Notes under the pieces: generated by a model
Databases searched by the model: none
What the model was told of the DNA's origin: nothing
The model's input: only the letters and a program-made list of their open reading frames with translations
Program-made: the position numbers and the translations under genes
Source: a phage
Sequence record: PX104379.1
Length of the DNA stretch: 64,000 nucleotides
Strand: one strand, 5' to 3'
In this document: in pieces, positions 16,201 through 59,858 of the stretch
Layout: every line of letters begins with the position of its first letter
Position numbering within the stretch: position 1 is the stretch's first letter

Positions 16201-16239
16201 ATTATTTTCCTCTTTAATTATTAGCAGTATTGCCGATAG

Positions 16240-16295
16240 TTGTATAGTACCATGGAAGGACAAGGATGTAAACCATTTTGTGAAAAAATTTTTGA
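16240..16295 (-). promoter_or_regulatory. T4 early promoter with A-rich upstream element
   Basis: Plus strand gtatagtacc ... tgtaaacc ... gtgaaaaaatttttgaaataaaaaa; near-identical copies at about 32645 and 36285. Confidence 0.55.
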
Positions 16296-16322
16296 AATAA
16301 AAAAGGGACCCTAGAGGTCCCC
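16296..16322 (-). terminator. gene 32 rho-independent terminator
   Basis: Minus strand GGGGACC-UCUA-GGGUCCC followed by U6, 25 nt after the gene 32 stop. Confidence 0.7.
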
Positions 16323-18596: not shown

Positions 18597-19514
18597 TCAA
18601 AATTCATTAATGCTATTAGTTAATTTAGAAAGACCCGCTTTTACAAAATATGAATAAATTTTGCCACGCGGTGGTAATTTATATGAATTATAGTAATTCA
18701 CAATGTTTGAAGCAATATTATCAGGAATATAATCAAAATCAATTAGAACTAAATTTTCTTTATAACGATTATATTCAGATTCTGTAAGAAGCACCTTAGC
18801 TTGCTCACGGTCATTAGCAATAGCTTCAACGATTGAAGTTTTCATTGAAGGAGTTCGTTCACCTTCAACTCTGGTAAACCAAAAGTCAGATCGTACTTTA
18901 ACTGAAGCAACGTTGTCCTTTTTGTCGCCTTTAAGGATTTTAGTCATACAGTCAATTTCAGCAGAACCGCTTTTAATTTTAACCCATTTCTTGTGCATCG
19001 GTGACCATTGCTTAACATTTGGGTATTTGTGAAGCTGTGTAAAGTCACCATCCGACGAAATGATTAAAATCTTATGTCCTTCTAAAGAGAACTTTTTAAC
19101 AAGAACAGCAATGTGGTCATCTGCTTCATACTTATCAATATCCATAACAATGTATGGCATATAAGCTTTCAATTCATCTATAACTTTATGACTGGATTCA
19201 AAATAACCTTCCCAGTCCCAAGTCGATTCTTCTCGTGCTTTTCCACGGTTTTTCTTATAATAATAAGCAAAATCACGGCGCCAGTATCCAGATTTCGCGT
19301 TATCAATACACAGTACAATTTTAGTGTATCCAAGCGTTTTTGCTTTTTTGACATTAAACTTAATTGAGTTCAATATCAAATGACGAACCATTGATAAATT
19401 AATTTTTTCTTTATCTGGGAAGTTTACTAAAGCAGTTGAAAGCGCAATTTGACTAAAGTCAATAAAGCAAATTCCTTCTTTGTAATCTTCATCCAGCATC
19501 ATTTCTAAATCCAT
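18597..19514 (-). CDS. rnh: RNase H (5'-3' exonuclease / flap endonuclease), about 305 aa
   Basis: Recognised N-terminus MDLEMMLDEDYKEGIC; divergent from gene 34 as in T4. Confidence 0.9.
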   Translation of the reverse strand: MDLEMMLDEDYKEGICFIDFSQIALSTALVNFPDKEKINLSMVRHLILNSIKFNVKKAKTLGYTKIVLCIDNAKSGYWRRDFAYYYKKNRGKAREESTWDWEGYFESSHKVIDELKAYMPYIVMDIDKYEADDHIAVLVKKFSLEGHKILIISSDGDFTQLHKYPNVKQWSPMHKKWVKIKSGSAEIDCMTKILKGDKKDNVASVKVRSDFWFTRVEGERTPSMKTSIVEAIANDREQAKVLLTESEYNRYKENLVLIDFDYIPDNIASNIVNYYNSYKLPPRGKIYSYFVKAGLSKLTNSINEF

Positions 19515-19576
19515 ATGAACCTCGTTCAATTAGTGAGATTTCTATTATATACCATCCAAATCTTAAAGTAAACAAG

Positions 19577-19584
19577 TATAAATA
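19577..19584 (+). promoter_or_regulatory. T4 late promoter TATAAATA for gene 34
   Basis: Exact TATAAATA about 35 nt upstream of the gene 34 ATG. Confidence 0.75.
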
Positions 19585-19618
19585 CTTATTATTGAAAACA
19601 CAATAGGAGCCCGGGAGA

Positions 19619-22600
19619 ATGGCCGAGATTAAAAGAAAGTTCAGAGCAGAAGACGGTCTGGACGCAGGTGGTGATAAAATAATCAACGTAGCTTTAGCTG
19701 ATCGTACCGTAGGAACTGACGGTGTTAACGTTGATTACTTAATTCAAGAAAACACAGTTCAACAATACGATCCAACTCGTGGATATTTAAAAGATTTTGT
19801 AATCATTTATGATAACCGCTTTTGGGCTGCTATAAATGATATTCCAAAACCGGCAGGAGCTTTTAATAGCGGACGCTGGAGAGCATTACGTACCGATGCT
19901 AACTGGATTACGGTTTCATCTGGTTCATATCAATTAAAATCTGGTGAAGCTATTTCAGTTAACACCGCAGCTGGTAATGATATTACATTTACTTTACCAT
20001 CTACCCCAATTGATGGTGATACTATCGTTCTCCAAGATATTGGAGGAAAACCTGGAGTTAACCAAGTTTTAATTGTAGCTCCGGTGCAAAGTATTGTAAA
20101 CTTCAGAGGTCAACAAGTACGTTCAGTACTAATGACTCATCCAAAGTCACAGCTAGTTTTAATTTTTAGTAATCGTCTGTGGCAAATGTATGTTGCTGAT
20201 TATAGCAGAGAAGCTGTAGTTGTAACACCAGCGAATACTTATCAAGCACAATCAAACGATTTTATCGTACGTAGATTTACTTCTGCTGCACCAATTAATG
20301 TTAAACTTCCAAGATTTGCTAATCATGGCGATATTATTAATTTCGTTGATTTAGATAAACTGAATCCACTTTATCATACAATTGTTACTACATACGATGA
20401 AACGACTTCAGTGCAAGAAGTTGGAACTCATTCCATTGAAGGCCGTACATCGATTGACGGTTTCTTGATGTTTGATGATAATGAGAAATTGTGGAGATTG
20501 TTTGACGGGGATAGTAAAGCACGTTTACGCATTATAACGACTAATTCTAATATTCGTCCAAACGAAGAAGTTATGGTATTTGGTGCGAATAACGGAACAA
20601 CCCAAACAATTGAGCTTCAGCTTCCTACTAATATCTCCGTTGGTGATACTGTTAAAATTTCCATGAATTACATGAGAAAAGGACAAACAGTTAAAATCAA
20701 AGCTGCCGGTGAAGATAAAATTGCTTCTTCAGTTCAATTGCTGCAATTCCCAAAACGTTCAGAATATCCACCTGAAACTAAATGGGTAACTGTTCAAGAA
20801 TTAGTTTTTAACGGTGAAACTAATTATGTTCCAGTTTTACAGCTTGCTTATATAGAAGATTCTGATGGAAAATACTGGGTTGTACAGCAAAACGTTCCAA
20901 CTGTAGAAAGAGTAGATTCTTTAAATGATTCTACTAGAGCAAGATTAGGCGTAATTGCTTTAGCTACACAGGCTCAAGCTAACGTCGATTTAGAAAATTC
21001 TCCACAAAAAGAATTAGCAATTACTCCAGAAACATTAGCTAACCGTACTGCTACTGAAACTCGCAGAGGTATTGCAAGAATAGCAACTACTGCTCAAGTG
21101 AATCAGAACACTACATTCTCTTTTGCTGATGATATTATCATCACTCCTAAAAAGCTGAATGAAAGAACTGCTACAGAAACTCGCAGAGGTGTTGCTGAAA
21201 TTGCTACGCAGCAAGAAACTAATGCAGGAACCGATGATACTACAATCATTACTCCTAAAAAGCTTCAAGCTCGTCAAGGTTCTGAATCATTATCTGGTAT
21301 TGTAACTTTTGTATCTACTGCAGGTGCTACTCCAGCTTCTAGCCGTGAATTAAATGGTACGAATGTTTATAATAAAAACACTAATAACTTAGTTGTTTCA
21401 CCCAAAGCTTTGGATCAGTATAAAGCTACTCCAACGCAACAAGGTGCAGTAATTTTAGCAGTTGAAAGTGAAGTAATTGCTGGACAGAGTCAAGAAGGAT
21501 GGGCAAATGCTGTTGTAACGCCAGAAACGTTACACAAAAAGACATCAACTGATGGAAGAATTGGTTTAATTGAAATTGCTACGCAAAGTGAAGTTAATAC
21601 AGGAACTGATTATACTCGTGCAGTCACTCCTAAAACTTTAAATGACCGTAGAGCAACTGAAAGTTTAAGTGGTATAGCTGAAATTGCTACGCAAGTTGAA
21701 TTCGACGCAGGCGTCGACGATACTCGTATCTCTACACCATTAAAAATTAAAACCAGATTTAATAGTACTGATCGTACTTCTGTTGTTGCTCTATCTGGAT
21801 TAGTTGAATCAGGAACTCTCTGGGACCATTATACCCTTAATATTCTTGAAGCAAATGAGACACAACGTGGTACACTTCGTGTAGCTACACAAGTTGAAGC
21901 TGCTGCAGGAACATTAGATAATGTTTTAATAACTCCTAAAAAGCTTTTAGGTACTAAATCTACCGAAGCACAAGAAGGTGTTATTAAAGTTGCAACTCAG
22001 TCTGAAACTGTGGCTGGAACGTCAGCGAACACCGCTGTATCTCCAAAAAATTTAAAATGGATTGTGCAGAGTGAACCTACCTGGGCAGCTACTACTGCGA
22101 TAAGAGGTTTTGTTAAAACTTCATCCGGTTCAATTACATTCGTTGGTAATGATACAGTCGGTTCTACCCAAGATTTAGAACTGTATGAGAAAAATAGCTA
22201 TGCAGTATCACCATATGAATTAAACCGTGTATTAGCAAATTATTTACCGTTAAAAGCAAAAGCTGCTGATACAAATTTATTGGATGGTCTAGATTCATCT
22301 CAGTTCATTCGTAGGGATATTGCACAGACGGTTAATGGTTCACTAACCTTAACCCAACAAACGAATCTGAGTGCCCCTCTTGTATCATCTAGTACTGCTA
22401 CGTTTGGTGGATCAGTTTCGGCAAATAGTACATTAACTATTTCTAATACTGGAACGGCAACTCGTCTGATTTTTGAGAAAGGACCTCAAACTGGAACTAA
22501 CCCAGCACAGACGATGACTATCAGAGTTTGGGGAAATCAGTTTAGTGGCGGATCAGATACAACGCGTTCTACTGTATTTGAAGTTGGTGATGAAACATCT

Positions 22601-31971: not shown

Positions 31972-32607
31972 TCACAGTTCAGATGCTACAGCGATTACTG
32001 CTTCAATGTTTTCTGCCGAGCGTTTAATGTCAAGATACACATTACCGTTTTTAGCGATTTTACATGACATTCCGATGTCAGTAAATTTCTGAATATGATG
32101 TTCCATCATTTTGTATCCAAAAATTCGCATATTTCCATTGTTGTTAATTTCAAAATTGCGAATTCCATGAGTACGTTTTTCTAAAATAGCAAGATAATTA
32201 CTACGATAAGTTTCAACCTTTTTAAGAACAAATCCATTTTCATCTAAAAGTTTTAACATGAGGTCTTTATCTTCTTCCATATCGGAAGTAATCTCGCGAG
32301 CTTTACGAGTTGCTCGTTTTTTCAGCAGTTCCGGAGCATTTTCCTGCGCATATAAAGTTGCTGCGTTTGAAATAATATCTTGCGCTTCGCCTGTGATGAT
32401 TAATCCATCACCTGATTTCTCCACCAGGCCTTTTTTAATCAATACCCCAATATTACTATTAACTACTGCGTTACCTAAATCTGGATGCACCTCACGAACT
32501 TCTGCGGCTGTAATGAAATCTTTCTTAGCAATAGTAATTAAAATCGCAGCGGTTTTTTCATTCAGAACATCGTTAGAAGCTTTGATGATGTAAGTTACTT
32601 TAGACAT
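31972..32607 (-). CDS. motA: MotA middle-transcription activator, 211 aa
   Basis: 211 aa starting MSKVTYIIKASNDVLNEKTAAILITIAKKDF, recognised as MotA. Confidence 0.9.
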   Translation of the reverse strand: MSKVTYIIKASNDVLNEKTAAILITIAKKDFITAAEVREVHPDLGNAVVNSNIGVLIKKGLVEKSGDGLIITGEAQDIISNAATLYAQENAPELLKKRATRKAREITSDMEEDKDLMLKLLDENGFVLKKVETYRSNYLAILEKRTHGIRNFEINNNGNMRIFGYKMMEHHIQKFTDIGMSCKIAKNGNVYLDIKRSAENIEAVIAVASEL

Positions 32608-32644
32608 TTTCTAATCTCCGTAATTCTGTATCAGTAGTTGATAG

Positions 32645-32700
32645 TTGTATAGTACCACAGTATGCTTTGGTTGTAAACCGTTTTGTGAAAAAAATTTTTG
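32645..32700 (-). promoter_or_regulatory. T4 early promoter for motA with A-rich upstream element
   Basis: Plus strand gtatagtacc ... 16 nt ... gtaaacc ... gtgaaaaaaatttttgaaataaaaaa. Confidence 0.55.
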
Positions 32701-32703
32701 AAA

Positions 32704-32732
32704 TAAAAAAGGGAGAGCCTCGGCTCTCCCTA
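32704..32732 (-). terminator. rho-independent terminator (GGGAGAGCC-GAGG-CUCUCCC plus U-run)
   Basis: Plus strand aaaaaagggagagcctcggctctccc; inverted repeat followed on the minus strand by a U-run. Confidence 0.6.
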
Positions 32733-35745: not shown

Positions 35746-35769
35746 TTTCTGTTCCTCCGTAGTTGATAG

Positions 35770-35820
35770 GGTAATAGTACCACGGAAGAACAGTCTTGTA
35801 AACAGCTTTTTTAAAAATAT
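35770..35820 (-). promoter_or_regulatory. T4 early-type promoter
   Basis: Plus strand gtaatagtacc ... 16 nt ... tgtaaaca plus A/T-rich upstream tract. Confidence 0.45.
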
Positions 35821-35988
35821 TCGTAATAAATGTGAATACCAACCACTACCGCTGAAACCTGTGCAACCCACCACGCACAAGCAATAAGTACAGAATTCAA
35901 AATTTTCATAATAACCTCATCACAAAAGTAAATGTTAAACAAATTACTGGAATACTAATTAACCAAACAAAACACCACCATAATGAAC

Positions 35989-36270: not shown

Positions 36271-36284
36271 ATCAGTTGATAGTT

Positions 36285-36335
36285 GTATAATACCACGGTC
36301 CTTGTGGTATGTAAACCGTTTTGTGAAAATTTTTA
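36285..36335 (-). promoter_or_regulatory. T4 early promoter
   Basis: Plus strand gtataatacc ... tgtaaaccgttttgtgaaaatttt; near-identical to the promoters at about 16240 and 32645. Confidence 0.5.
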
Positions 36336-36890
36336 AATGGAAAGATACCAGCCGTTGTAGTTGCTTTTTCTTACAACCTTACGAAGGTCTTCTCTATCAC
36401 CGATGAACTTCGGAGTGTACTGGATGACACCTGGATGAATTTCTTTAGTGTTGAATATAATTATACAGTCCGCGACCTGGTGATTTAGAATGGGCCCTAG
36501 ATTTATTCCAGAACCATATGGATACTCTCCGCTGCATCCCGTTGTTACCGAAATCCAACGCGAGTCAGTTTGATGTGTCTTAACTTCTACACGGAGCCCA
36601 CAGTATTTTGGATGTGCTAAAACATCCCATGCATACGTGTACGGATCATCGGCATCTTCTTGACCTTTGTTAACATATCCACTCAACCAATCTGCTACCA
36701 CATACTCGGCATACACAGCAATACGGCATCTTTCGATAACTTCTGCCTTATCCTGATTTGGATTTTGTTTTAAAGAGTATCTTGCAGTATCAGCAATTTT
36801 GGCCTTCATTTCACTAGTCAAGTCACTGTTAGATAGTGTAAATGACGGAATCTGAAATAGTCTCTGCAAACCCGGATTCGTTTTCTGCAT
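36333..36890 (-). CDS. denB: endonuclease IV (DenB)-like protein, 185 aa
   Basis: 185 aa as T4 DenB; located between ndd and rIIB (D region). Confidence 0.7.
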   Translation of the reverse strand: MQKTNPGLQRLFQIPSFTLSNSDLTSEMKAKIADTARYSLKQNPNQDKAEVIERCRIAVYAEYVVADWLSGYVNKGQEDADDPYTYAWDVLAHPKYCGLRVEVKTHQTDSRWISVTTGCSGEYPYGSGINLGPILNHQVADCIIIFNTKEIHPGVIQYTPKFIGDREDLRKVVRKSNYNGWYLSI

Positions 36891-44207: not shown

Positions 44208-44302
44208 GTTGTTTTCTGTATCAGTAGTTGATATTGATATAGTACCATAATCAACTACTGATGTATATAGTTTTATGAAAAAATTTTAAACTTTATGCAA
44301 AT

Positions 44303-53569: not shown

Positions 53570-53612
53570 ATTCTATTATACCATACTCATTTTGATATGT
53601 AAACCATTTAAA
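53570..53612 (-). promoter_or_regulatory. T4 early-type promoter
   Basis: Plus strand ctattatacc ... tgtaaacc. Confidence 0.45.
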
Positions 53613-53613
53613 T

Positions 53614-53638
53614 GAAAAAGGACTCCCGAAGGAGTCCT
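53614..53638 (-). terminator. rho-independent terminator after soc (GGACUCC-UUCG-GGAGUCC plus U-run)
   Basis: Same hairpin sequence as the terminator at 560..585. Confidence 0.7.
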
Positions 53639-53957: not shown

Positions 53958-54476
53958 TTAATAACCTCGGTCCTGACGAGCAAAGTTCTCGGCATTTTTC
54001 AGATAATAAAGTTTAAAGATTTCTTCTGCTGTAAGACCAAGACCCTGGAACATATTCAGAACGAAATGAAGAATATCAATCATTTCAAATTTAATTTCTA
54101 ACTGGTCTTGTGGAGACAAATCAGTAATCAGAGTTTCACGACGTTCACCATGCTGCGACTTCCAAGGTTTCCATACAGCAGATGCGTCTTTTTCACCATT
54201 ACTCATACCACCAAGAGAAGTCAGAAGTTCACGGAATTCATCGTCAATATAATCTTTCTGATTACGCAACCAATCAACAACTTCACCGGCAGTAGCCAAG
54301 TCATCAGGATGACGATTATATTCAGGTTTATCTTTAGCTAAACGAATCTGCAGAGATTTCTGCATGTCAAGCATTACCTGCAGCGGGTCTTTTTCATCAC
54401 CGAGAATATCCCAATATTCATTTTGAGCTTTATCAGCGCCTTCGATCAGTTGACTACATTCGTTGAAATGTGGCAT
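53958..54476 (-). CDS. 56: dCTP/dCDP pyrophosphatase gp56 (MazG-like), 172 aa
   Basis: 171-172 aa; recognised as T4 gp56. Confidence 0.9.
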   Translation of the reverse strand: MPHFNECSQLIEGADKAQNEYWDILGDEKDPLQVMLDMQKSLQIRLAKDKPEYNRHPDDLATAGEVVDWLRNQKDYIDDEFRELLTSLGGMSNGEKDASAVWKPWKSQHGERRETLITDLSPQDQLEIKFEMIDILHFVLNMFQGLGLTAEEIFKLYYLKNAENFARQDRGY

Positions 54477-54477
54477 G

Positions 54478-55128
54478 TTATTTTTCCTTTCTTATGAAGT
54501 TTTCTATCATATGTCTATAGCAGATATTAGGATAACCTGCCTTGACAGCTATTTTATTAAATTTTGTGCGCTTAGGTCTATTATTATAAACCCATAATTC
54601 ATAAAGCGCATCATAACTATTCCATATTTCTCCTCGCCTAGGATTTGGTAAACCATATCGAGGTGAATTTTTACCGCTAAATCTTCCTTTTCGGGCTTTA
54701 CTCATATTAGCCTTGGCTTCATCGGATATAATTTTACCTTTATGAGCTAGACGCATTTTGGCTTTAGTTTCTTCTGGGGTCTTTTTGCCTTTAATCCATG
54801 ACGGCTTGCCATATCTAGGATTATTTTCACCCGAGAAAAGAACAGAGTTTTGGATTTTAAGGGTTTCTATTAATCTACTTGTTAATTTAACACCTTTATT
54901 ATATCGCATTAAATTTACAGCATAATGCAATCCTCTCACATCTGGATATATTTTAGTTAATAATCTATGAGCTATAAAATGCTCACGCGCAGTTAACTCA
55001 ACAAGATTGTTTTTGTCATCTGCTCCTCCTATACATCTAGGAATTATATGATGGCGTTCTTTATATCCGCCAAGATGCCGGCATTTAGCTTTTGTAATTA
55101 AAGCCGAGTAAATTTTTTGGTAATTCAC
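54478..55128 (-). CDS. HNH homing-endonuclease-like protein with NUMOD3 DNA-binding repeats, 216 aa
   Basis: HNH motif ERHHIIPRCIGGADDKNNLVELTAREHFIAH; two NUMOD3-like repeats (PEETKAKMRLAHKGK, SDEAKANMSKARKGR). Confidence 0.8.
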   Translation of the reverse strand: MNYQKIYSALITKAKCRHLGGYKERHHIIPRCIGGADDKNNLVELTAREHFIAHRLLTKIYPDVRGLHYAVNLMRYNKGVKLTSRLIETLKIQNSVLFSGENNPRYGKPSWIKGKKTPEETKAKMRLAHKGKIISDEAKANMSKARKGRFSGKNSPRYGLPNPRRGEIWNSYDALYELWVYNNRPKRTKFNKIAVKAGYPNICYRHMIENFIRKEK

Positions 55129-55198: not shown

Positions 55199-55399
55199 AT
55201 GGTACAAAAATTAATGGCACTTGTTAATGCCATAAAAGGTAATAAAAAACGTATAGCTTTTACTATTTCTGCTATGGTAGGAATTTTACTCTGGAACTTT
55301 ATTTTATCACCAATTGCAATTGCGCATGGTGTTAATATTCCAGTAGTTACTCTTGATACATTCGTAGATCTAGCATTTGCTTTAGTTGGGTTAATTTAA
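55199..55399 (+). CDS. small membrane protein, 66 aa, opposite strand to the surrounding early genes
   Basis: Strong AAGGAGG Shine-Dalgarno 7 nt upstream of the ATG; hydrophobic helices; no overlapping minus-strand ORF. Confidence 0.55.
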   Translation: MVQKLMALVNAIKGNKKRIAFTISAMVGILLWNFILSPIAIAHGVNIPVVTLDTFVDLAFALVGLI

Positions 55400-56424
55400 A
55401 TCTTGGCATATTTAGATAGCCGCATTTTAGCCATTAACCCCTGGGCAATATTATTTTTCATATATTCCATAATTTGTTCAGGGGTTGCACCTTCCTTTCT
55501 AATCATATCATTGACATCTTTTGATTTCCAGGGAGATTTATCCCAAAACATAACCCTTTCTCCTGCATCAACTAATTTAGTCATTCGTTTGATAGTGTCA
55601 GGGTGACGAGGTTCATTATCTAAAACCCACACTCGTCTATCTTTAAATGGAACAATTTCTAGGTCTAATTGACCACCCGTAATAGCTATACCATTTTCAA
55701 TAAAAAGTGAATCTATAGGTCCTTCTAGAACATATACATCACCATCTTTAACTCGTTCGACTCCATATATTTTTGTTGCCTCAGGATAAGCTTTGATGGT
55801 GATATATTTTTGAGGAGCATCTTTCTTTAATGCACGTCCTTGAAAAGACTCAGCTTTTCCATTAGCATTATAAATTGGAATAACAAGACGAGGCTCAGAA
55901 ATTTCCTTTTTGTATGTTCCCGGTGCTATGCTATTAACTAATTTAGGCCATTCAGTTGTAAACCAAAGATATTTCCATTTATCCTTTGGAATACAACGAG
56001 CTTTTACATATTTTATAATTGGATGGTCTTCCGCCAGTTTATCTAATCTAACACATGACGGAAGAGATTTAATTATTTTCTTCTCAAGTTGTTTAGGAAG
56101 TTCTTTAGGTTTTTCTACTGGACGACTTTTACCTTTTTCTTTTCTTATTTCAAAGATATACTCACGATATAAATCAGGTTCAAACTCCTTTAAATATATT
56201 CCGATTGGTGCATGATAGTTACAGTTATAACAATGAATATTTCCTTCATTATTATCACCATAATACCATCCACGAGCTTTATTCTGGTCGGTTTTTGAAT
56301 CTCCACAAACAGGGCATCTAAACCGTAATTTAAAAGTTGAACTATTATTTACTTGTGTGAATTTAGGTAAATGAGCTAATGCACGATACGCAAACTCATT
56401 ATCAATCCAAGGTATTGATGACAT
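55396..56424 (-). CDS. 61: DNA primase gp61, 342 aa
   Basis: 342 aa; N-terminal zinc-binding CPVCGDS ... CYNCNYH; Toprim-like core. Confidence 0.9.
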   Translation of the reverse strand: MSSIPWIDNEFAYRALAHLPKFTQVNNSSTFKLRFRCPVCGDSKTDQNKARGWYYGDNNEGNIHCYNCNYHAPIGIYLKEFEPDLYREYIFEIRKEKGKSRPVEKPKELPKQLEKKIIKSLPSCVRLDKLAEDHPIIKYVKARCIPKDKWKYLWFTTEWPKLVNSIAPGTYKKEISEPRLVIPIYNANGKAESFQGRALKKDAPQKYITIKAYPEATKIYGVERVKDGDVYVLEGPIDSLFIENGIAITGGQLDLEIVPFKDRRVWVLDNEPRHPDTIKRMTKLVDAGERVMFWDKSPWKSKDVNDMIRKEGATPEQIMEYMKNNIAQGLMAKMRLSKYAKI

Positions 56425-56426
56425 TT

Positions 56427-56591
56427 TTACTCTTCTTTTTCTTTAGATTCCTCTTTTTTCTTTTTAGGAATCTGTTCAGGACCTTTATTTACTACAGCAC
56501 CTGATGTTGTTCCAGTAGAGATATTTTCAGGATTACCACCTGAATCTCCAGCAACCATATCTTCTTTAATAAATTCTTTATATGTTTTCAT
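56427..56591 (-). CDS. small charged ORF, 54 aa, hand-called
   Basis: Hand translation MKTYKEFIKEDMVAGDSGGNPENISTGTTSGAVVNKGPEQIPKKKKEESKEKEE; fills the gap between the 61.1-like ORF and gene 61. Confidence 0.35.
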   Translation of the reverse strand: MKTYKEFIKEDMVAGDSGGNPENISTGTTSGAVVNKGPEQIPKKKKEESKEKEE

Positions 56592-56592
56592 A

Positions 56593-56949
56593 TTAACCTC
56601 TATTCATAAAAGCATTAAAAATTTGGTCATCAATAGATGGCACAGTAATATTTTCTGCATCATTTAGCAAATCATTAATTTCATCGGATAGCATAACACA
56701 TGTACCTTTATTTCCTGTAATTGTTACTGCGCAATTACGAACGTTTTCTTTATTAAATTTTAGGTTAATATTTTCGTAATGAAAATCCTTTAATGCTGAA
56801 TATATTTTTAAAATAAAATTGTCTTTTACTACAATAAACCCAACCTCACTATTAAAACGTGGTTCATGGAAACTGTAATAAACCTTTTCATCTATAAAAT
56901 CGTATGAAATTTTTTCCATTTTTAAATATGAAAATTCAGAACTATACAT
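56593..56949 (-). CDS. hypothetical protein, 118 aa (61.1-like); C-terminus shared with the next ORF
   Basis: C-terminal ...SIDDQIFNAFMNRG identical to the C-terminus of ORF 56951..57577. Confidence 0.55.
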   Translation of the reverse strand: MYSSEFSYLKMEKISYDFIDEKVYYSFHEPRFNSEVGFIVVKDNFILKIYSALKDFHYENINLKFNKENVRNCAVTITGNKGTCVMLSDEINDLLNDAENITVPSIDDQIFNAFMNRG

Positions 56950-56950
56950 A

Positions 56951-57577
56951 TTAACCTTTATTCATAAAAGCATTAAAAATTTGGTCATCAATAGAAACAT
57001 TTACTTTAGACTGTTTTTCTGATGGTAATTCATATCCACATATTACAATTTTGTGATCAATATCAAAATACACAGAAGCAATATGATTAATGATGTTTTC
57101 AGTAAAGTCTAAATCAACATCAATATCTTTTTGACCACAGCCCAAAGGATAAATAATGCGAGTAATTCGATTATCTTTAACAAATATTCCACCGACATAC
57201 TCTGTGCTGCGTTTAAAGTCTACACGCCGACGAAATGAAAAATATTCAGGCTCTCTATGAGCTCGGCTCATAGGACACAACGAGTAACTAGAATAAGAGA
57301 TGTCAAATCCTACACCTTCGATATGAGCCAAAGTGTTATGATTAAACCAATTATAATCGTACGCCAAATCCATTAGATTATAATATGTAAAAGGCACCGG
57401 ATTAACATCATTAGTCACAAGCATGTAATTAGCAACTGCTATAATTTCATTGTTTTTAACGAATACAAACCGTGATTGATGCGAATGACCTGGACCCGCG
57501 TTTTCACGATTAATGATATAACACTGGGCACCTTTATATTTGTATGTATCTCTGCACTTGTGCATTTGATAGAGCAT
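56951..57577 (-). CDS. hypothetical protein, 208 aa (61.2-like)
   Basis: ORF track; C-terminal ...SIDDQIFNAFMNKG. Confidence 0.55.
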   Translation of the reverse strand: MLYQMHKCRDTYKYKGAQCYIINRENAGPGHSHQSRFVFVKNNEIIAVANYMLVTNDVNPVPFTYYNLMDLAYDYNWFNHNTLAHIEGVGFDISYSSYSLCPMSRAHREPEYFSFRRRVDFKRSTEYVGGIFVKDNRITRIIYPLGCGQKDIDVDLDFTENIINHIASVYFDIDHKIVICGYELPSEKQSKVNVSIDDQIFNAFMNKG

Positions 57578-57870
57578 TATTCACCTACCACTTCAGCGAT
57601 GATATTTTTATTATTAAAGTTTTTATCACAATACAGAACATAATTATACTGCATTACACCACCAGACTTAAGCTGTTTTTGTACTTCAGCTTTCATTTCA
57701 GGACGATCACGCTCAACGATATTCATAATATCCGCTTCAATTTGAGTTTCAACTTCAGTCTGATCTGCAGTCATAGACCATTCGCACAAATCTTTATCAT
57801 AACCTGCCATAGCAGGCTGAGCAGCACAAGAAGCTAAAGCAAAAATTGTGGCAAAGATAAATTTTTTCAT
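57577..57870 (-). CDS. sp: Spackle periplasmic superinfection-exclusion protein, 97 aa
   Basis: 97 aa with cleavable signal peptide MKKFIFATIFALASCAAQPAMA; position between 61 and dmd. Confidence 0.8.
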   Translation of the reverse strand: MKKFIFATIFALASCAAQPAMAGYDKDLCEWSMTADQTEVETQIEADIMNIVERDRPEMKAEVQKQLKSGGVMQYNYVLYCDKNFNNKNIIAEVVGE

Positions 57871-57930: not shown

Positions 57931-58188
57931 TTATTTTAAAACTTCTGCGTAATCACATGTTACAAACTGTTTCTCTAGCTTGACGATTTTACGAAAGTAT
58001 CTTTTGCATTGGCGAATCTGCCGCTTCGTAGGGCGAACAGCAAACTTAATAAATTCCACTCGACCAAATGGAGGGCTTTCTTCTGATGGAATATCTAACA
58101 CCAATTCCCACGTATCTGCAATAAGTGCTTTGAATTGCGTATTTTTCCTGACATTATACGGAGTAGGTTTAAATAAAACAATATGCAT
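57931..58188 (-). CDS. hypothetical protein, 85 aa
   Basis: ORF track. Confidence 0.55.
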   Translation of the reverse strand: MHIVLFKPTPYNVRKNTQFKALIADTWELVLDIPSEESPPFGRVEFIKFAVRPTKRQIRQCKRYFRKIVKLEKQFVTCDYAEVLK

Positions 58189-58189
58189 A

Positions 58190-58372
58190 TTATCCTCGGC
58201 AATCTACTTCACATACTTTCTTGTCATCAATGAAAGCTTTAACTAATGCTTTATTAACTTCAGCATATTGAGTAGTAGCCCATTGAACGTCATCTTTCAT
58301 CATTGTGGTTTCTTTAGTAAACATGCTTTCATTCTTAAACCACCCCATAAAAACTACCTTTACCAATTCCAT
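58190..58372 (-). CDS. dmd: Dmd, 60 aa (antitoxin against host RnlA/LsoA RNases)
   Basis: 60 aa; directly downstream of gene 41 as in T4. Confidence 0.8.
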   Translation of the reverse strand: MELVKVVFMGWFKNESMFTKETTMMKDDVQWATTQYAEVNKALVKAFIDDKKVCEVDCRG

Positions 58373-58397: not shown

Positions 58398-58435
58398 GAC
58401 TACTATACCATAGTCTTGTCAGCTTGTAAACTAAA
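58398..58435 (-). promoter_or_regulatory. T4 early-type promoter upstream of dmd
   Basis: Plus strand ctactatacc ... 16 nt ... tgtaaac. Confidence 0.45.
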
Positions 58436-59858
58436 ATTTTAATTCATTTGCCAAAGCATCTAACTGAGCTCGAGTGGATTCATTTCTTTGATAGCGATTC
58501 TGCTCAGCCTGAATCTGTTGTGAACCTGCTACTTCACTCACTTCAGTTGGAGTAGAATCTTGTTCAATTTCTACCCATTTTTGATTTCCTTTTTGAACAC
58601 CCATCAAAAACTTATTCCACTTATTCTTATCACCATATCGTGATTTGATTTGCTTAATGAGTTGTTGTTCAGCAGCTGCTAGCTCCTCGGTTTCAATGAC
58701 CGCAAGCATAAAATCAGCTGTTGCTGGAAGACCAGCAGATTCTGCAATATCGCTCATGTTAACATCGGAAGAGTCCCAAGCTTGTTTACCAACCTGTGCT
58801 GCAGTCCAAAGAACAGTTTCGGTTTCAACAGCCAGAGCACGCAATTCCTCTGCGATAGCTTTAACAGTTGTGTAACTATTTTCTGAATAAACTCTAATGC
58901 GGCAAGATTTACAAATACCTAGATAGTCGACAATAATGATTGTTGGAACAAAATTCTTCTTGAGCTTTAATTCATTTAAAAGTGATCGAAATGTATTAGC
59001 GTCTGCTCCACCAGTAGGATATTGCTTAACGATTAAACGACCAAGGGTAGATTTCTCACGCCATTTTTCCATTTTTCCTTTATACTCAGCGTAAGAAATA
59101 TGTCCATCATCAATGTCATCAAGAGAAACATCAAGCATGTTAGCGTCAATACGCTTAGCACAGACTTCTTCTGCCATTTCCATGGAGATATAAAGAACGT
59201 TATGACCAAGCTGCAAATAATCTGCTGCTAATGAACAAAGTCCTAATGATTTACCAACGTTAACGCCAGCCATTAAAACGTTCAGTGTTCCAATTTCAGC
59301 TCCGCCTTTAGTAATTTTGTTTAGAATTCTGAGTTTAAATGGAACCTTACGAGCTTTATTCATATAAGATAGCCAACGCGCTTCATAGTCATCCATCCAA
59401 TCATGACCAACGTAGCTATCAAATGAAATTGATAATGCTTGGCGCATGATGTCAGGAATAGCACCTACATCTGGCATTTTCTTATTTCGTTTTTCCGGAG
59501 GAAGCTCAGCATTAGTTTGAATTTCGATTATTTTAGATGTAGCATTAAACATCGCCCTTTGCTGAACATATTTTTCTGTTTCTTTTACTAACCAGCTGTG
59601 GTCTTCTGGAGAATCAGCCAGTTTTGAAATAAGTGTTTTTACACCAGAATATTCTGTTTCAGTAAATGAACTATTTTCTAATGCAACATTTAACGCATTA
59701 ATAGATGGAACGCTATGATACTCATTAACATGAGATTTAATTAATTTGAATGTATTTTTAGCTGGACCACTTTCAAAATATTCTGAATCCATATATGGCC
59801 AAACTTTTGAAAAATAAGCTTGATCAAATATGAGATGAGAAAGAATAATTTCTACCAC
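58431..59858 (-). CDS. 41: replicative DNA helicase gp41 (DnaB-like), 475 aa
   Basis: 475 aa; Walker A GVNVGKS. Confidence 0.95.
   Translation of the reverse strand: MVEIILSHLIFDQAYFSKVWPYMDSEYFESGPAKNTFKLIKSHVNEYHSVPSINALNVALENSSFTETEYSGVKTLISKLADSPEDHSWLVKETEKYVQQRAMFNATSKIIEIQTNAELPPEKRNKKMPDVGAIPDIMRQALSISFDSYVGHDWMDDYEARWLSYMNKARKVPFKLRILNKITKGGAEIGTLNVLMAGVNVGKSLGLCSLAADYLQLGHNVLYISMEMAEEVCAKRIDANMLDVSLDDIDDGHISYAEYKGKMEKWREKSTLGRLIVKQYPTGGADANTFRSLLNELKLKKNFVPTIIIVDYLGICKSCRIRVYSENSYTTVKAIAEELRALAVETETVLWTAAQVGKQAWDSSDVNMSDIAESAGLPATADFMLAVIETEELAAAEQQLIKQIKSRYGDKNKWNKFLMGVQKGNQKWVEIEQDSTPTEVSEVAGSQQIQAEQNRYQRNESTRAQLDALANELKF

Follow-up and report, generated by a model that had tools for sequence, protein, structure and literature searches.

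The 64,000-nucleotide (nt) stretch of phage DNA considered here (sequence record PX104379.1, one strand, 5' to 3'; hereafter the window) comes from a Tequatrovirus, that is, a T4-like phage, and contains a variable slot between the genes sp (spackle) and 61.1. All genes of the region lie on the minus strand. The slot is bounded upstream by sp (57577-57870), whose stop codon overlaps the start codon of the following gene in the sequence TAATG. That gene is adfA (gene 61.2; 56951-57577), present as its T4-type allele, which encodes the 208-amino-acid (aa) anti-DarT factor A. It is followed by an open reading frame (ORF) of 118 aa (56593-56949; hereafter ORF118), which belongs to the RB32ORF033c family (phrog_4122), and then by gene 61.1 (56427-56591), which encodes 54 aa. 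AdfA matches Pfam PF23813 over profile positions 1-211 (E = 4.6e-135, 448 bits, above the gathering score), and it acts against DarTG toxin-antitoxin defence (PMC11257639; PMC9391042). The closest relatives at the locus are EPIMRB01 and AUBRB02 (99.6%) and RB32-like phages. The subject of this report is a 49-nt direct repeat, one copy of which forms the 3' end of adfA and the other the 3' end of ORF118. The labels '61.1-like' and '61.2-like', which an initial annotation of the window had given to the two ORFs, are wrong: the pair consists of 61.2 (adfA) and the extra 118-aa ORF, and the true 61.1 is the 54-aa ORF that starts where the copy in ORF118 ends.

A repeat scan and direct reading of the letters place the two copies at 56589-56637 (R1, at the end of ORF118) and 56947-56995 (R2, at the end of adfA), with a start-to-start spacing of 358 nt and 48 of 49 positions identical (98%). 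At the one position that differs, R1 has C (56600) and R2 has T (56958); on the coding strand this is AGAGG versus AAAGG and exchanges Arg for Lys. The initial annotation had described a repeat of about 50 nt with one mismatch; the repeat is real, but it had been drawn one base too far to the left in both copies (56588 is t and 56946 is a, which do not match). Its length also stands well clear of the 20 nt or so below which the same annotation would have abandoned it. From the base composition of the window, the number of 49-mer pairs with at most one mismatch expected by chance is 5.6e-17. The longest exact repeat of the window, at 37 nt, lies inside the 49-nt repeat, and shuffled sequences (n = 10) reach 15-18 nt. 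In a scan of the whole window, it is the top-conserved long direct repeat.

Read on the coding strand, each copy is TCT ATT GAT GAC CAA ATT TTT AAT GCT TTT ATG AAT A(G/A)A GGT TAA T ATG, and its minus-strand letters are TCTATTGATGACCAAATTTTTAATGCTTTTATGAATA(G/A)AGGTTAATATG. Coding sequence of the upstream gene accounts for 42 of the 49 nt. These are its last 14 codons, S-I-D-D-Q-I-F-N-A-F-M-N-(R/K)-G (SIDDQIFNAFMN(R/K)G; hereafter the tail), and they are followed by the stop codon TAA, one base (T) and the ATG of the next ORF. The Shine-Dalgarno sequence (SD) of the next ORF sits within the last two codons of the upstream gene, so SD and ATG together make up the 3' end of the module. In R1, the last 14 codons of ORF118 (SIDDQIFNAFMNRG) lead to the stop TAA at 56595-56593, the SD is AGAGG (56602-56598), and the ATG of 61.1 (56591-56589) is the last 3 nt of the repeat. 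In R2, the last 14 codons of adfA (SIDDQIFNAFMNKG) are likewise followed by the stop, the SD is weakened to AAAGG (56960-56956), and the ATG of ORF118 lies at 56949-56947. The minus-strand reading thus bears out the earlier observation that each copy encodes a common C terminus together with a stop and the next start.

The initial annotation missed that the repeat is also a promoter: a mapped T4 middle promoter, P61, lies in it. The start site of P61 is at position 19122 of T4 (PMC2988021 Table 1, Hinton 2010; the source given there is Marshall, Sharma and Hinton 1999). In the T4 record AF158101.6, 61.1 occupies 18966-19130 and 61.2 occupies 19132-19758, which makes the start site the ninth nucleotide of 61.1. 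In this register, TAATAT lies at -12 to -7, where it overlaps the 61.2 stop and the AT of the 61.1 start codon, and GCTT lies at -30 to -27, within the N-A-F codons of the tail. These positions agree exactly with those known for the Mot box, whose consensus (a/t)(a/t)(a/t)TGCTT(t/c)A is centred near -30 with GCTT at -30 to -27 (PMC1524935). R1 equals the T4 sequence at 49 of 49 positions, and the two are identical from -46 to +2 of P61. The Mot box of R1, TAATGCTTTT, is at 56616-56607 (GCTT core at 56613-56610), its -10 element TAATAT is at 56595-56590, and its predicted +1 is 56583. The corresponding elements of R2 are a Mot box at 56974-56965 and a -10 element at 56953-56948, and R2 departs from R1 only at 56958 (promoter position -17). 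In both copies the Mot box agrees with the consensus at 9 of 10 positions (the final A is T), and the 12-base-pair (bp) spacer between it and TAATAT places the latter within the 11-13 bp downstream at which TAnnnT is sought. A relaxed Mot-box/-10 pattern has 23 matches in the window versus 7.9 expected, R1 and R2 included. The record of phage Lutter annotates a 'promoter' at both copies.

Mot-box middle promoters require the activator MotA, and the phage encodes it (motA, 31972-32607, minus strand; Pfam MotA_activ E = 4.8e-61, MotCF E = 1e-66). By its sequence and position, R1 can be taken as the ortholog of P61 at the T4 location, ahead of 61.1 and gene 61. The window carries the P61 sequence twice, with the second copy 358 bp upstream and ahead of ORF118, and this copy may be active as well. 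By homology with T4, the P61 transcript would begin at the ninth nucleotide of 61.1, and its first complete ORF would be gene 61 (55396-56424, minus strand), which encodes the DNA primase and gave the promoter its name. The repeat is a natural example of one short sequence that is protein tail, middle promoter and translation start at once.

Outside the tail, the two proteins that share it have little in common. Full-length ORF118 matches AdfA with a BLASTP E value of 2e-8 and the Pfam AdfA profile over positions 113-211 (E = 7.4e-8, 32.5 bits; cut-off 27), and the RefSeq record of RB32 annotates RB32ORF033c as 'similar to gp61.2'. Most of this signal comes from the tail. ORF118 without its 14 tail residues matches AdfA with a BLASTP E value of 0.013 and has no Pfam AdfA match, and a small profile-profile comparison (hhalign) of the tail-less protein aligns a colinear stretch around VG.I.VKDN.I at P = 0.0023. 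Codon usage separates the two parts further. In the tail, the codon is the same for all 13 shared residues (7.3 expected, P = 2.7e-4) and nucleotide identity is 98%, whereas in the body the codon is the same for only 8 of 23 (11.6 expected), nucleotide identity is 44% and synonymous sites are saturated. A single recent duplication cannot yield this pattern. A recent tandem segmental duplication was considered and rejected, as it requires even divergence along the unit. The two proteins may share an ancient origin, and from the sequence the body of ORF118 is not demonstrably AdfA-like.

Homolog searches yielded few clusters, 5 for ORF118 and 16 for AdfA, each at identities of at least 67%, so both families are narrow and their alignments shallow. 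AlphaFold2 models have a predicted local distance difference test (pLDDT) score of 71 for AdfA (13-sequence alignment) and 56.7 for ORF118 (6 sequences); with these low-confidence models, Foldseek returned no match with E < 0.06 for AdfA against PDB or for ORF118 against BFVD. In both models the tail forms a terminal helix. In AdfA this helix follows a coil of about 24 residues, which has a 5-residue length polymorphism immediately ahead of the tail. The residue equivalent to residue 164 of RB69 AdfA (DarT1 neutralisation) is His in the AdfA of the window (..NIINH IASV..), and Asn is aligned with it in ORF118. The motif (I/V)F(V/I)VK(D/N)N.I occurs twice in AdfA (at about residues 37-45 and 131-139) and once in ORF118; its doubling hints at an internal duplication in AdfA.

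The content of the slot differs among relatives. The locus region matches 647 records of the INPHARED phage collection, and the module occurs at 919 places in 717 records of the collection; in IMG/VR, scans that used the protein or a degenerate pattern of the tail gave 15-16 loci only, and the annotated phage collection is far richer. Four architectures occur, and their counts are approximate and refer to about 500 sequenced Tequatrovirus relatives, with relatives of at least 95% identity compared. Type A, the arrangement of the window (sp-adfA-ORF118-61.1), is recognized by its adfA-to-ORF118 junction in about 158 records, including RB32, RB18 and AR1. Type B (sp-adfA-61.1), with an adfA-to-61.1 junction, is found in about 173 records, T4 and T6 among them. 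ORF118 is present at an identity of at least 80% in 299 records, which after subtraction of the 158 of type A leaves about 141 records of type C (sp-ORF118-61.1), such as T2 and ime09. Type D (sp-61.1) has neither gene and is estimated from a systematic sample at about 20 records, including phiC600P9, G3F7 and RB6.

T4 has one copy of the module, identical to R1 and adjoining the body of adfA, and its locus is exactly 358 bp shorter than that of the window with no other indel. It is thus shorter by exactly one repeat unit, which is what a crossover between two copies would leave. The initial annotation had proposed that the repeat could mediate deletion of the intervening ORF and had pointed to the 61.1/61.2 region of related phages. 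These relatives agree with the proposal, as the ORF is absent from T4-type phages exactly as predicted and the boundaries fall at the module; the deletion step itself is read from such comparisons. In T2 (LC348380.1), the adfA slot holds ORF118, which is annotated '61.2' with a shortened start and has only the tail in common with AdfA. adfA is present in 13 of 17 Tevenvirinae, and T2 has been counted as naturally lacking it (PMC11257639).

The alleles of the two genes do not sort with the architectures. The ORF118 body of the window is 99.4% identical to that of the C-type phage PYps55T and 98.7% to that of T2, compared with 94.5-96.8% for the A-type phages slur03 (94.5%), AR1 and KMB42. Similarly, over the C-terminal part of its adfA the window has 98.4-98.7% identity with B-type phages (98.7% for EC121), compared with 88-91% for the A-type phages KMB42, Lutter and AR1, which have an RB69-like adfA allele. 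Architectures follow neither the cassette alleles nor the flanks, and the alleles have been reassorted across the four states, which is what repeated exchange would produce. The initial annotation had also suggested a recombination-generated duplication or module exchange. The module boundary and the reassortment of alleles among architectures fit the exchange, but the diverged bodies leave no room for a recent duplication of a gene end. Two allele classes of adfA are seen in Tequatrovirus (the window and loci L004, L007, L038 and L040), a T4-type of 208 aa and an RB69-like type of 210-212 aa. The alleles have a mosaic boundary within the gene, with an N-terminal part that is unalignable at the DNA level and a C-terminal part that is 88-91% identical.

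The junction that follows sp in types C and D is TAA-TTAGAGG(T/C)TA(G/A)TATG, which resembles the last 12-14 nt of the module (SD and start) without the Mot box. In phages with neither gene (phiC600P9, G3F7 and RB6, with ime09 examined alongside), sp is joined to 61.1 through TAA-TTAGAGGCTAATATG; the -10-like TAATAT is kept and there is no GCTT at -30. With a junction that lacks the Mot box, D-type phages appear to be without P61, yet they are viable isolates. A simple deletion between TGAATA microhomologies at the end of sp and in the tail was tried as the origin of the C and D junctions and rejected, as it does not reproduce them and leaves four bases over. The record of Yersinia phage phiD1 (HE956711.1, 17205-20068) has four tails, with two full copies of ORF118 and a 102-nt fragment between 61.1 and adfA. 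Such an array would result from tandem expansion at the module. N's occur in the stretch, however, and an assembly problem may be the cause, so the extra copies are doubtful and were not used as evidence of expansion.

Conservation of the tail was examined in 33 tails from 22 Tequatrovirus loci. Tails next to 61.1, of adfA and ORF118 alike, are invariant in 22 of 22 cases over positions 13-49 (Mot box, spacer, SD, -10 and ATG), and variation is limited to three synonymous sites upstream of the Mot box. The adfA tails that abut ORF118 are different: all 11 of 11 carry G38A or G41A in the SD and spacer (L004, L005, L007, L038-L041 and L050 among the loci). G38A changes AGAGG to AAAGG, and Arg to Lys, at promoter position -17, as in the window (56958 versus 56600), and G41A changes GGT to GAT, and Gly to Asp, at promoter position -14. 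These substitutions could adjust the translation of ORF118 or the duplicated promoter, or could simply reflect shared ancestry.

The tail is not confined to two genes or to one genus. The same peptide ends three ORF families, namely AdfA (208-216 aa), the ORF118 family (117-119 aa) and a 145-aa family (JS98 gp030-like), and tail-bearing families are found in Tequatrovirus, in RB69-like (Mosigvirus-like) phages and in Gaprivervirus (SP18). Without its tail, the 145-aa family has no significant similarity to AdfA or ORF118 (E = 0.08-0.1). In Gaprivervirus (L008, L009 and L051; gp036 and gp035 of Shigella phage SP18), an ORF of 145/146 aa and an ORF118-like gene stand in tandem in the same slot, and both have the tail. 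The direct repeat thus recurs there with another partner gene and with lineage-specific synonymous codons. Between Tequatrovirus and L009 tails there are 5 synonymous differences and 1 non-synonymous difference in 12 codons. Change between genera is mostly synonymous, so the peptide itself is under selection, and it probably has a function. The tandem tails of L009 differ from each other at 3 of 49 positions, and each differs from the tail of its own family in another genus at 6-7 positions or more. These small numbers are modest evidence that tails may undergo concerted evolution within a lineage. In the other genera, the codons for N-A-F continue as GCC TT(C/T) or GCA TTT and the GCTT core of the Mot box is absent; in Tequatrovirus, an older coding motif thus seems to have been put to use as a promoter.

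The repeat is probably a multiply constrained 3' module common to two gene cassettes, and both a trace and a substrate of homologous exchange between sp and 61.1. The module carries the C-terminal peptide, P61, and an SD and ATG that couple translation of the next ORF to the upstream gene. In T4, transcription from P61 begins 9 nt into 61.1 and thereby provides the primase gene with middle-mode mRNA. Either adfA or ORF118 can fill the slot alone, each bringing the same module, so unequal homologous recombination between co-infecting or sister genomes could stack the two genes in tandem and leave the module behind as a direct repeat. Recombination between R1 and R2 would remove ORF118 and restore the T4 arrangement. 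Recombination of T4 in this region readily uses homologies far shorter than the repeat (PMC9391042), which makes 49 nt a plausible substrate. Several observations weigh against so simple a scheme. The junctions of types C and D are no simple product of recombination within the 49-nt module, and other events at microhomologies must have occurred too. Where a genome has both genes, synonymous variation in its adfA tail (GAC GAT) tracks the adfA allele type rather than the other tail of the same genome, so there is no sign of ongoing gene conversion within Tequatrovirus genomes. The predicted start of the putative R2 promoter lies downstream of the ORF118 ATG; transcripts from R2 would thus add to those of 61.1 and 61 rather than yield full-length ORF118. 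The invariance of positions 13-49 in 22 of 22 tails could arise from selection on promoter, SD and peptide without frequent recombination. Finally, the direction and mechanism of recombination, and its proposed role at the module in the gains and losses of cassettes, are deduced from genome comparisons.

Some of these points would also fit overlapping selection on peptide, Mot box, -10, SD and start alone, with no role in recombination and with gene presence and absence resulting from unrelated events. This account is partly compatible with exchange at the module, and since the repeat holds a promoter, an SD and a peptide kept across genera, part of the near-identity of R1 and R2 does reflect stacked functional constraints rather than recency. 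The restriction of variable sites to three synonymous positions upstream of the Mot box, the mostly synonymous change between genera and the adfA-tail variants that follow the allele rather than the genome are all what it expects. As the whole explanation it is nevertheless rather unlikely. The difference in length between T4-type and both-gene forms is exactly one repeat unit, with no other indel, and seven synonymous sites that have no known role in promoter or SD are also identical between R1 and R2. The copy ahead of ORF118 has no evident need of a promoter, yet the promoter is intact in 11 of 11 cases, and tails of different gene families have lineage-specific synonymous states in common within a genus.

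A partial tandem duplication, in which ORF118 is an in-place copy of the 3' half of adfA whose body diverged while its end was kept, would make the repeat a remnant. The Pfam and BLASTP matches of full-length ORF118, the RB32 note and the weak colinear similarity of the tail-less bodies near VG.I.VKDN.I all favour it, but the Pfam match is lost with the tail, and a saturated body joined to an identical tail is incompatible with one date of duplication. ORF118 also stands alone beside sp in about 141 genomes, and in Gaprivervirus an ORF118-like gene is paired with a different tail-bearing gene. An ancient common origin would still give no account of the present 98% identity, and this origin of the repeat is very improbable. 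Least credible of all, and effectively refuted, is that the repeat marks a mobile element (a selfish insertion with its target-site duplication) or a mis-assembly. Direct repeats do flank ORF118, and the phiD1 record has four tails and two ORF118 copies. Yet domain searches found no nuclease, transposase or integrase domain in ORF118, and 49 nt far exceeds a typical target-site duplication. The repeat is moreover functional sequence that is also present at the empty site, the same junction occurs in 158 independent records, and the extra copies of phiD1, with N's in the region, are themselves in doubt.

Among described systems, the closest counterparts of the module shared by adfA and ORF118 are the PeSL cassettes (promoter-early stem-loops) of T4-type phages (Arbiol et al. 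2010, PMC2839356; Comeau et al. 2014, PMC4122927). Like them, the module is a short regulatory sequence that is repeated where genes meet in a hyperplastic region, includes a promoter and finishes with the SD and start of the following gene. Module and PeSLs alike border ORFs that some close relatives have and others lack, and homologous exchange has been proposed to occur at either. Unlike PeSLs, which have a sigma-70 early promoter, the module has a MotA-dependent middle promoter; it lies within coding sequence and is translated as the C terminus of the upstream protein, and it belongs to one locus rather than to a genome-wide family. A sigma-70 promoter scan found no site in R1 or R2 (each has a -10, but a Mot box stands where the -35 would be). 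Folds of 71 nt around the copies gave -10.3 kcal/mol (z = -1.3) and -4.2 kcal/mol (z = +1.4), with no terminator-like site. Membership of the module among the PeSLs was therefore rejected, there being neither a sigma-70 early promoter nor a stem-loop, and the Comeau et al. 2014 paper on PeSLs (PMC4122927) does not mention the locus. The window has other repeats that look like the PeSL-like elements of this genome. A family of about 73 nt has five members (16235-16307, 32640-32712, 35765-35837, 36278-36350 and 44230-44302), which on the minus strand resemble T4 early promoters, with an AT-rich stretch, GTTTACA and then GGTACTATAC. A 29-nt GC hairpin repeat, 97% identical between 557-585 and 53610-53638, looks like a shared terminator.

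Compared with P61 of T4, R1 is the same sequence in the same place, at the end of the gene that precedes 61.1, and the phage of the window differs in having a second copy upstream, as a putative further promoter. The deletions and amplifications at short homologies described for T4, with the dmd-tifA amplifications beside this locus among them (Srikant et al. 2022, PMC9391042), concern the same neighbourhood and the same kind of event as proposed here, in which accessory anti-defence genes are gained or lost through recombination of direct repeats. Those arose in the laboratory at homologies of 2-10 bp, whereas the repeat considered here is 49 nt long, natural and functional, and its events are deduced from natural variants. 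With respect to AdfA (LeRoux et al. 2022; PMC11257639), the upstream gene of the window encodes the full-length protein, and ORF118 shares with it the C-terminal 14 residues and the slot in the genome. P61, the patchy distribution of adfA and the similarity of RB32ORF033c to gp61.2 are already known. A literature search, which was not exhaustive, found no description of tail, P61 and translational junction as one shared 49-nt module, of a tail common to three ORF families, of four population states bounded by the module, or of ORF118 in the adfA slot of T2-type phages. The finding is an instance of known phage genome plasticity rather than a new principle, and it extends the modular shuffling described for hyperplastic regions of T4-like phages.

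Upstream of sp, also on the minus strand, lie the antitoxin genes tifA (57931-58188), whose name is confirmed for gene 61.4, and dmd (58190-58372), in a neighbourhood that has been called the 'anti-TA island' (PMC9391042). A sigma-70-like early promoter (58430-58402) stands ahead of tifA and dmd, and the gene 41 helicase (58431-59858) lies further upstream. Records including those of PEC04, teqsoen and HP3 name the 54-aa product of 61.1 or of its neighbour a 'major capsid (domain-containing) protein', which is almost certainly a propagated annotation error. On the other side of gene 61, a 216-aa ORF (54478-55128, minus strand) has HNH-like residues and a NUMOD3 motif (Pfam E = 8e-7) and is probably a homing endonuclease. 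It lies between gene 56 (53958-54476) and a 66-aa plus-strand ORF that precedes gene 61. At this position RB32, EC121 and slur03 have nothing, and fPS-2 has an annotated homing endonuclease.

The features of the tail invite a further idea, that it is a short docking motif common to counter-defence proteins and not part of their folds, and that ORF118 is a counter-defence factor that replaces AdfA in T2-type phages. The tail is acidic and hydrophobic, is predicted to form a terminal helix after a linker of variable length, and occurs in at least three small protein families of the sp-61.1 slot that are otherwise unrelated, namely AdfA, the ORF118 family and the 145-aa JS98 gp030 family. In T4, gp43, gp33 and gp55 have interchangeable acidic and hydrophobic C-terminal epitopes for the sliding clamp (gp45), of which the tail is loosely reminiscent. 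The gp45-binding motif of T4 is LDFLF (PMC6212786). The resemblance of the tail to LDFLF is loose, a search of the ORFs of the window found no other that ends with a similar motif, and a link to the clamp is speculation. The idea as a whole is a long shot. If it were true, the motif could bring varying counter-defence proteins to one shared partner, perhaps at the replication fork, where single-stranded DNA is modified by DarT, and the DNA that encodes the motif would double as a recombination joint for cassette swapping.

The 49-nt module gives a base-pair-level account of the patchy distribution of adfA among T-even phages. In T2-type phages the slot is not empty and is instead occupied by a 118-aa gene that shares the tail. 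As a sequence common to alternative cassettes, the module can serve as a crossover point for the swapping and stacking of anti-defence genes. In phages with both genes, the direct repeat should make ORF118 genetically unstable, and the duplicated P61 sequence may alter the expression of 61.1 and of the primase.

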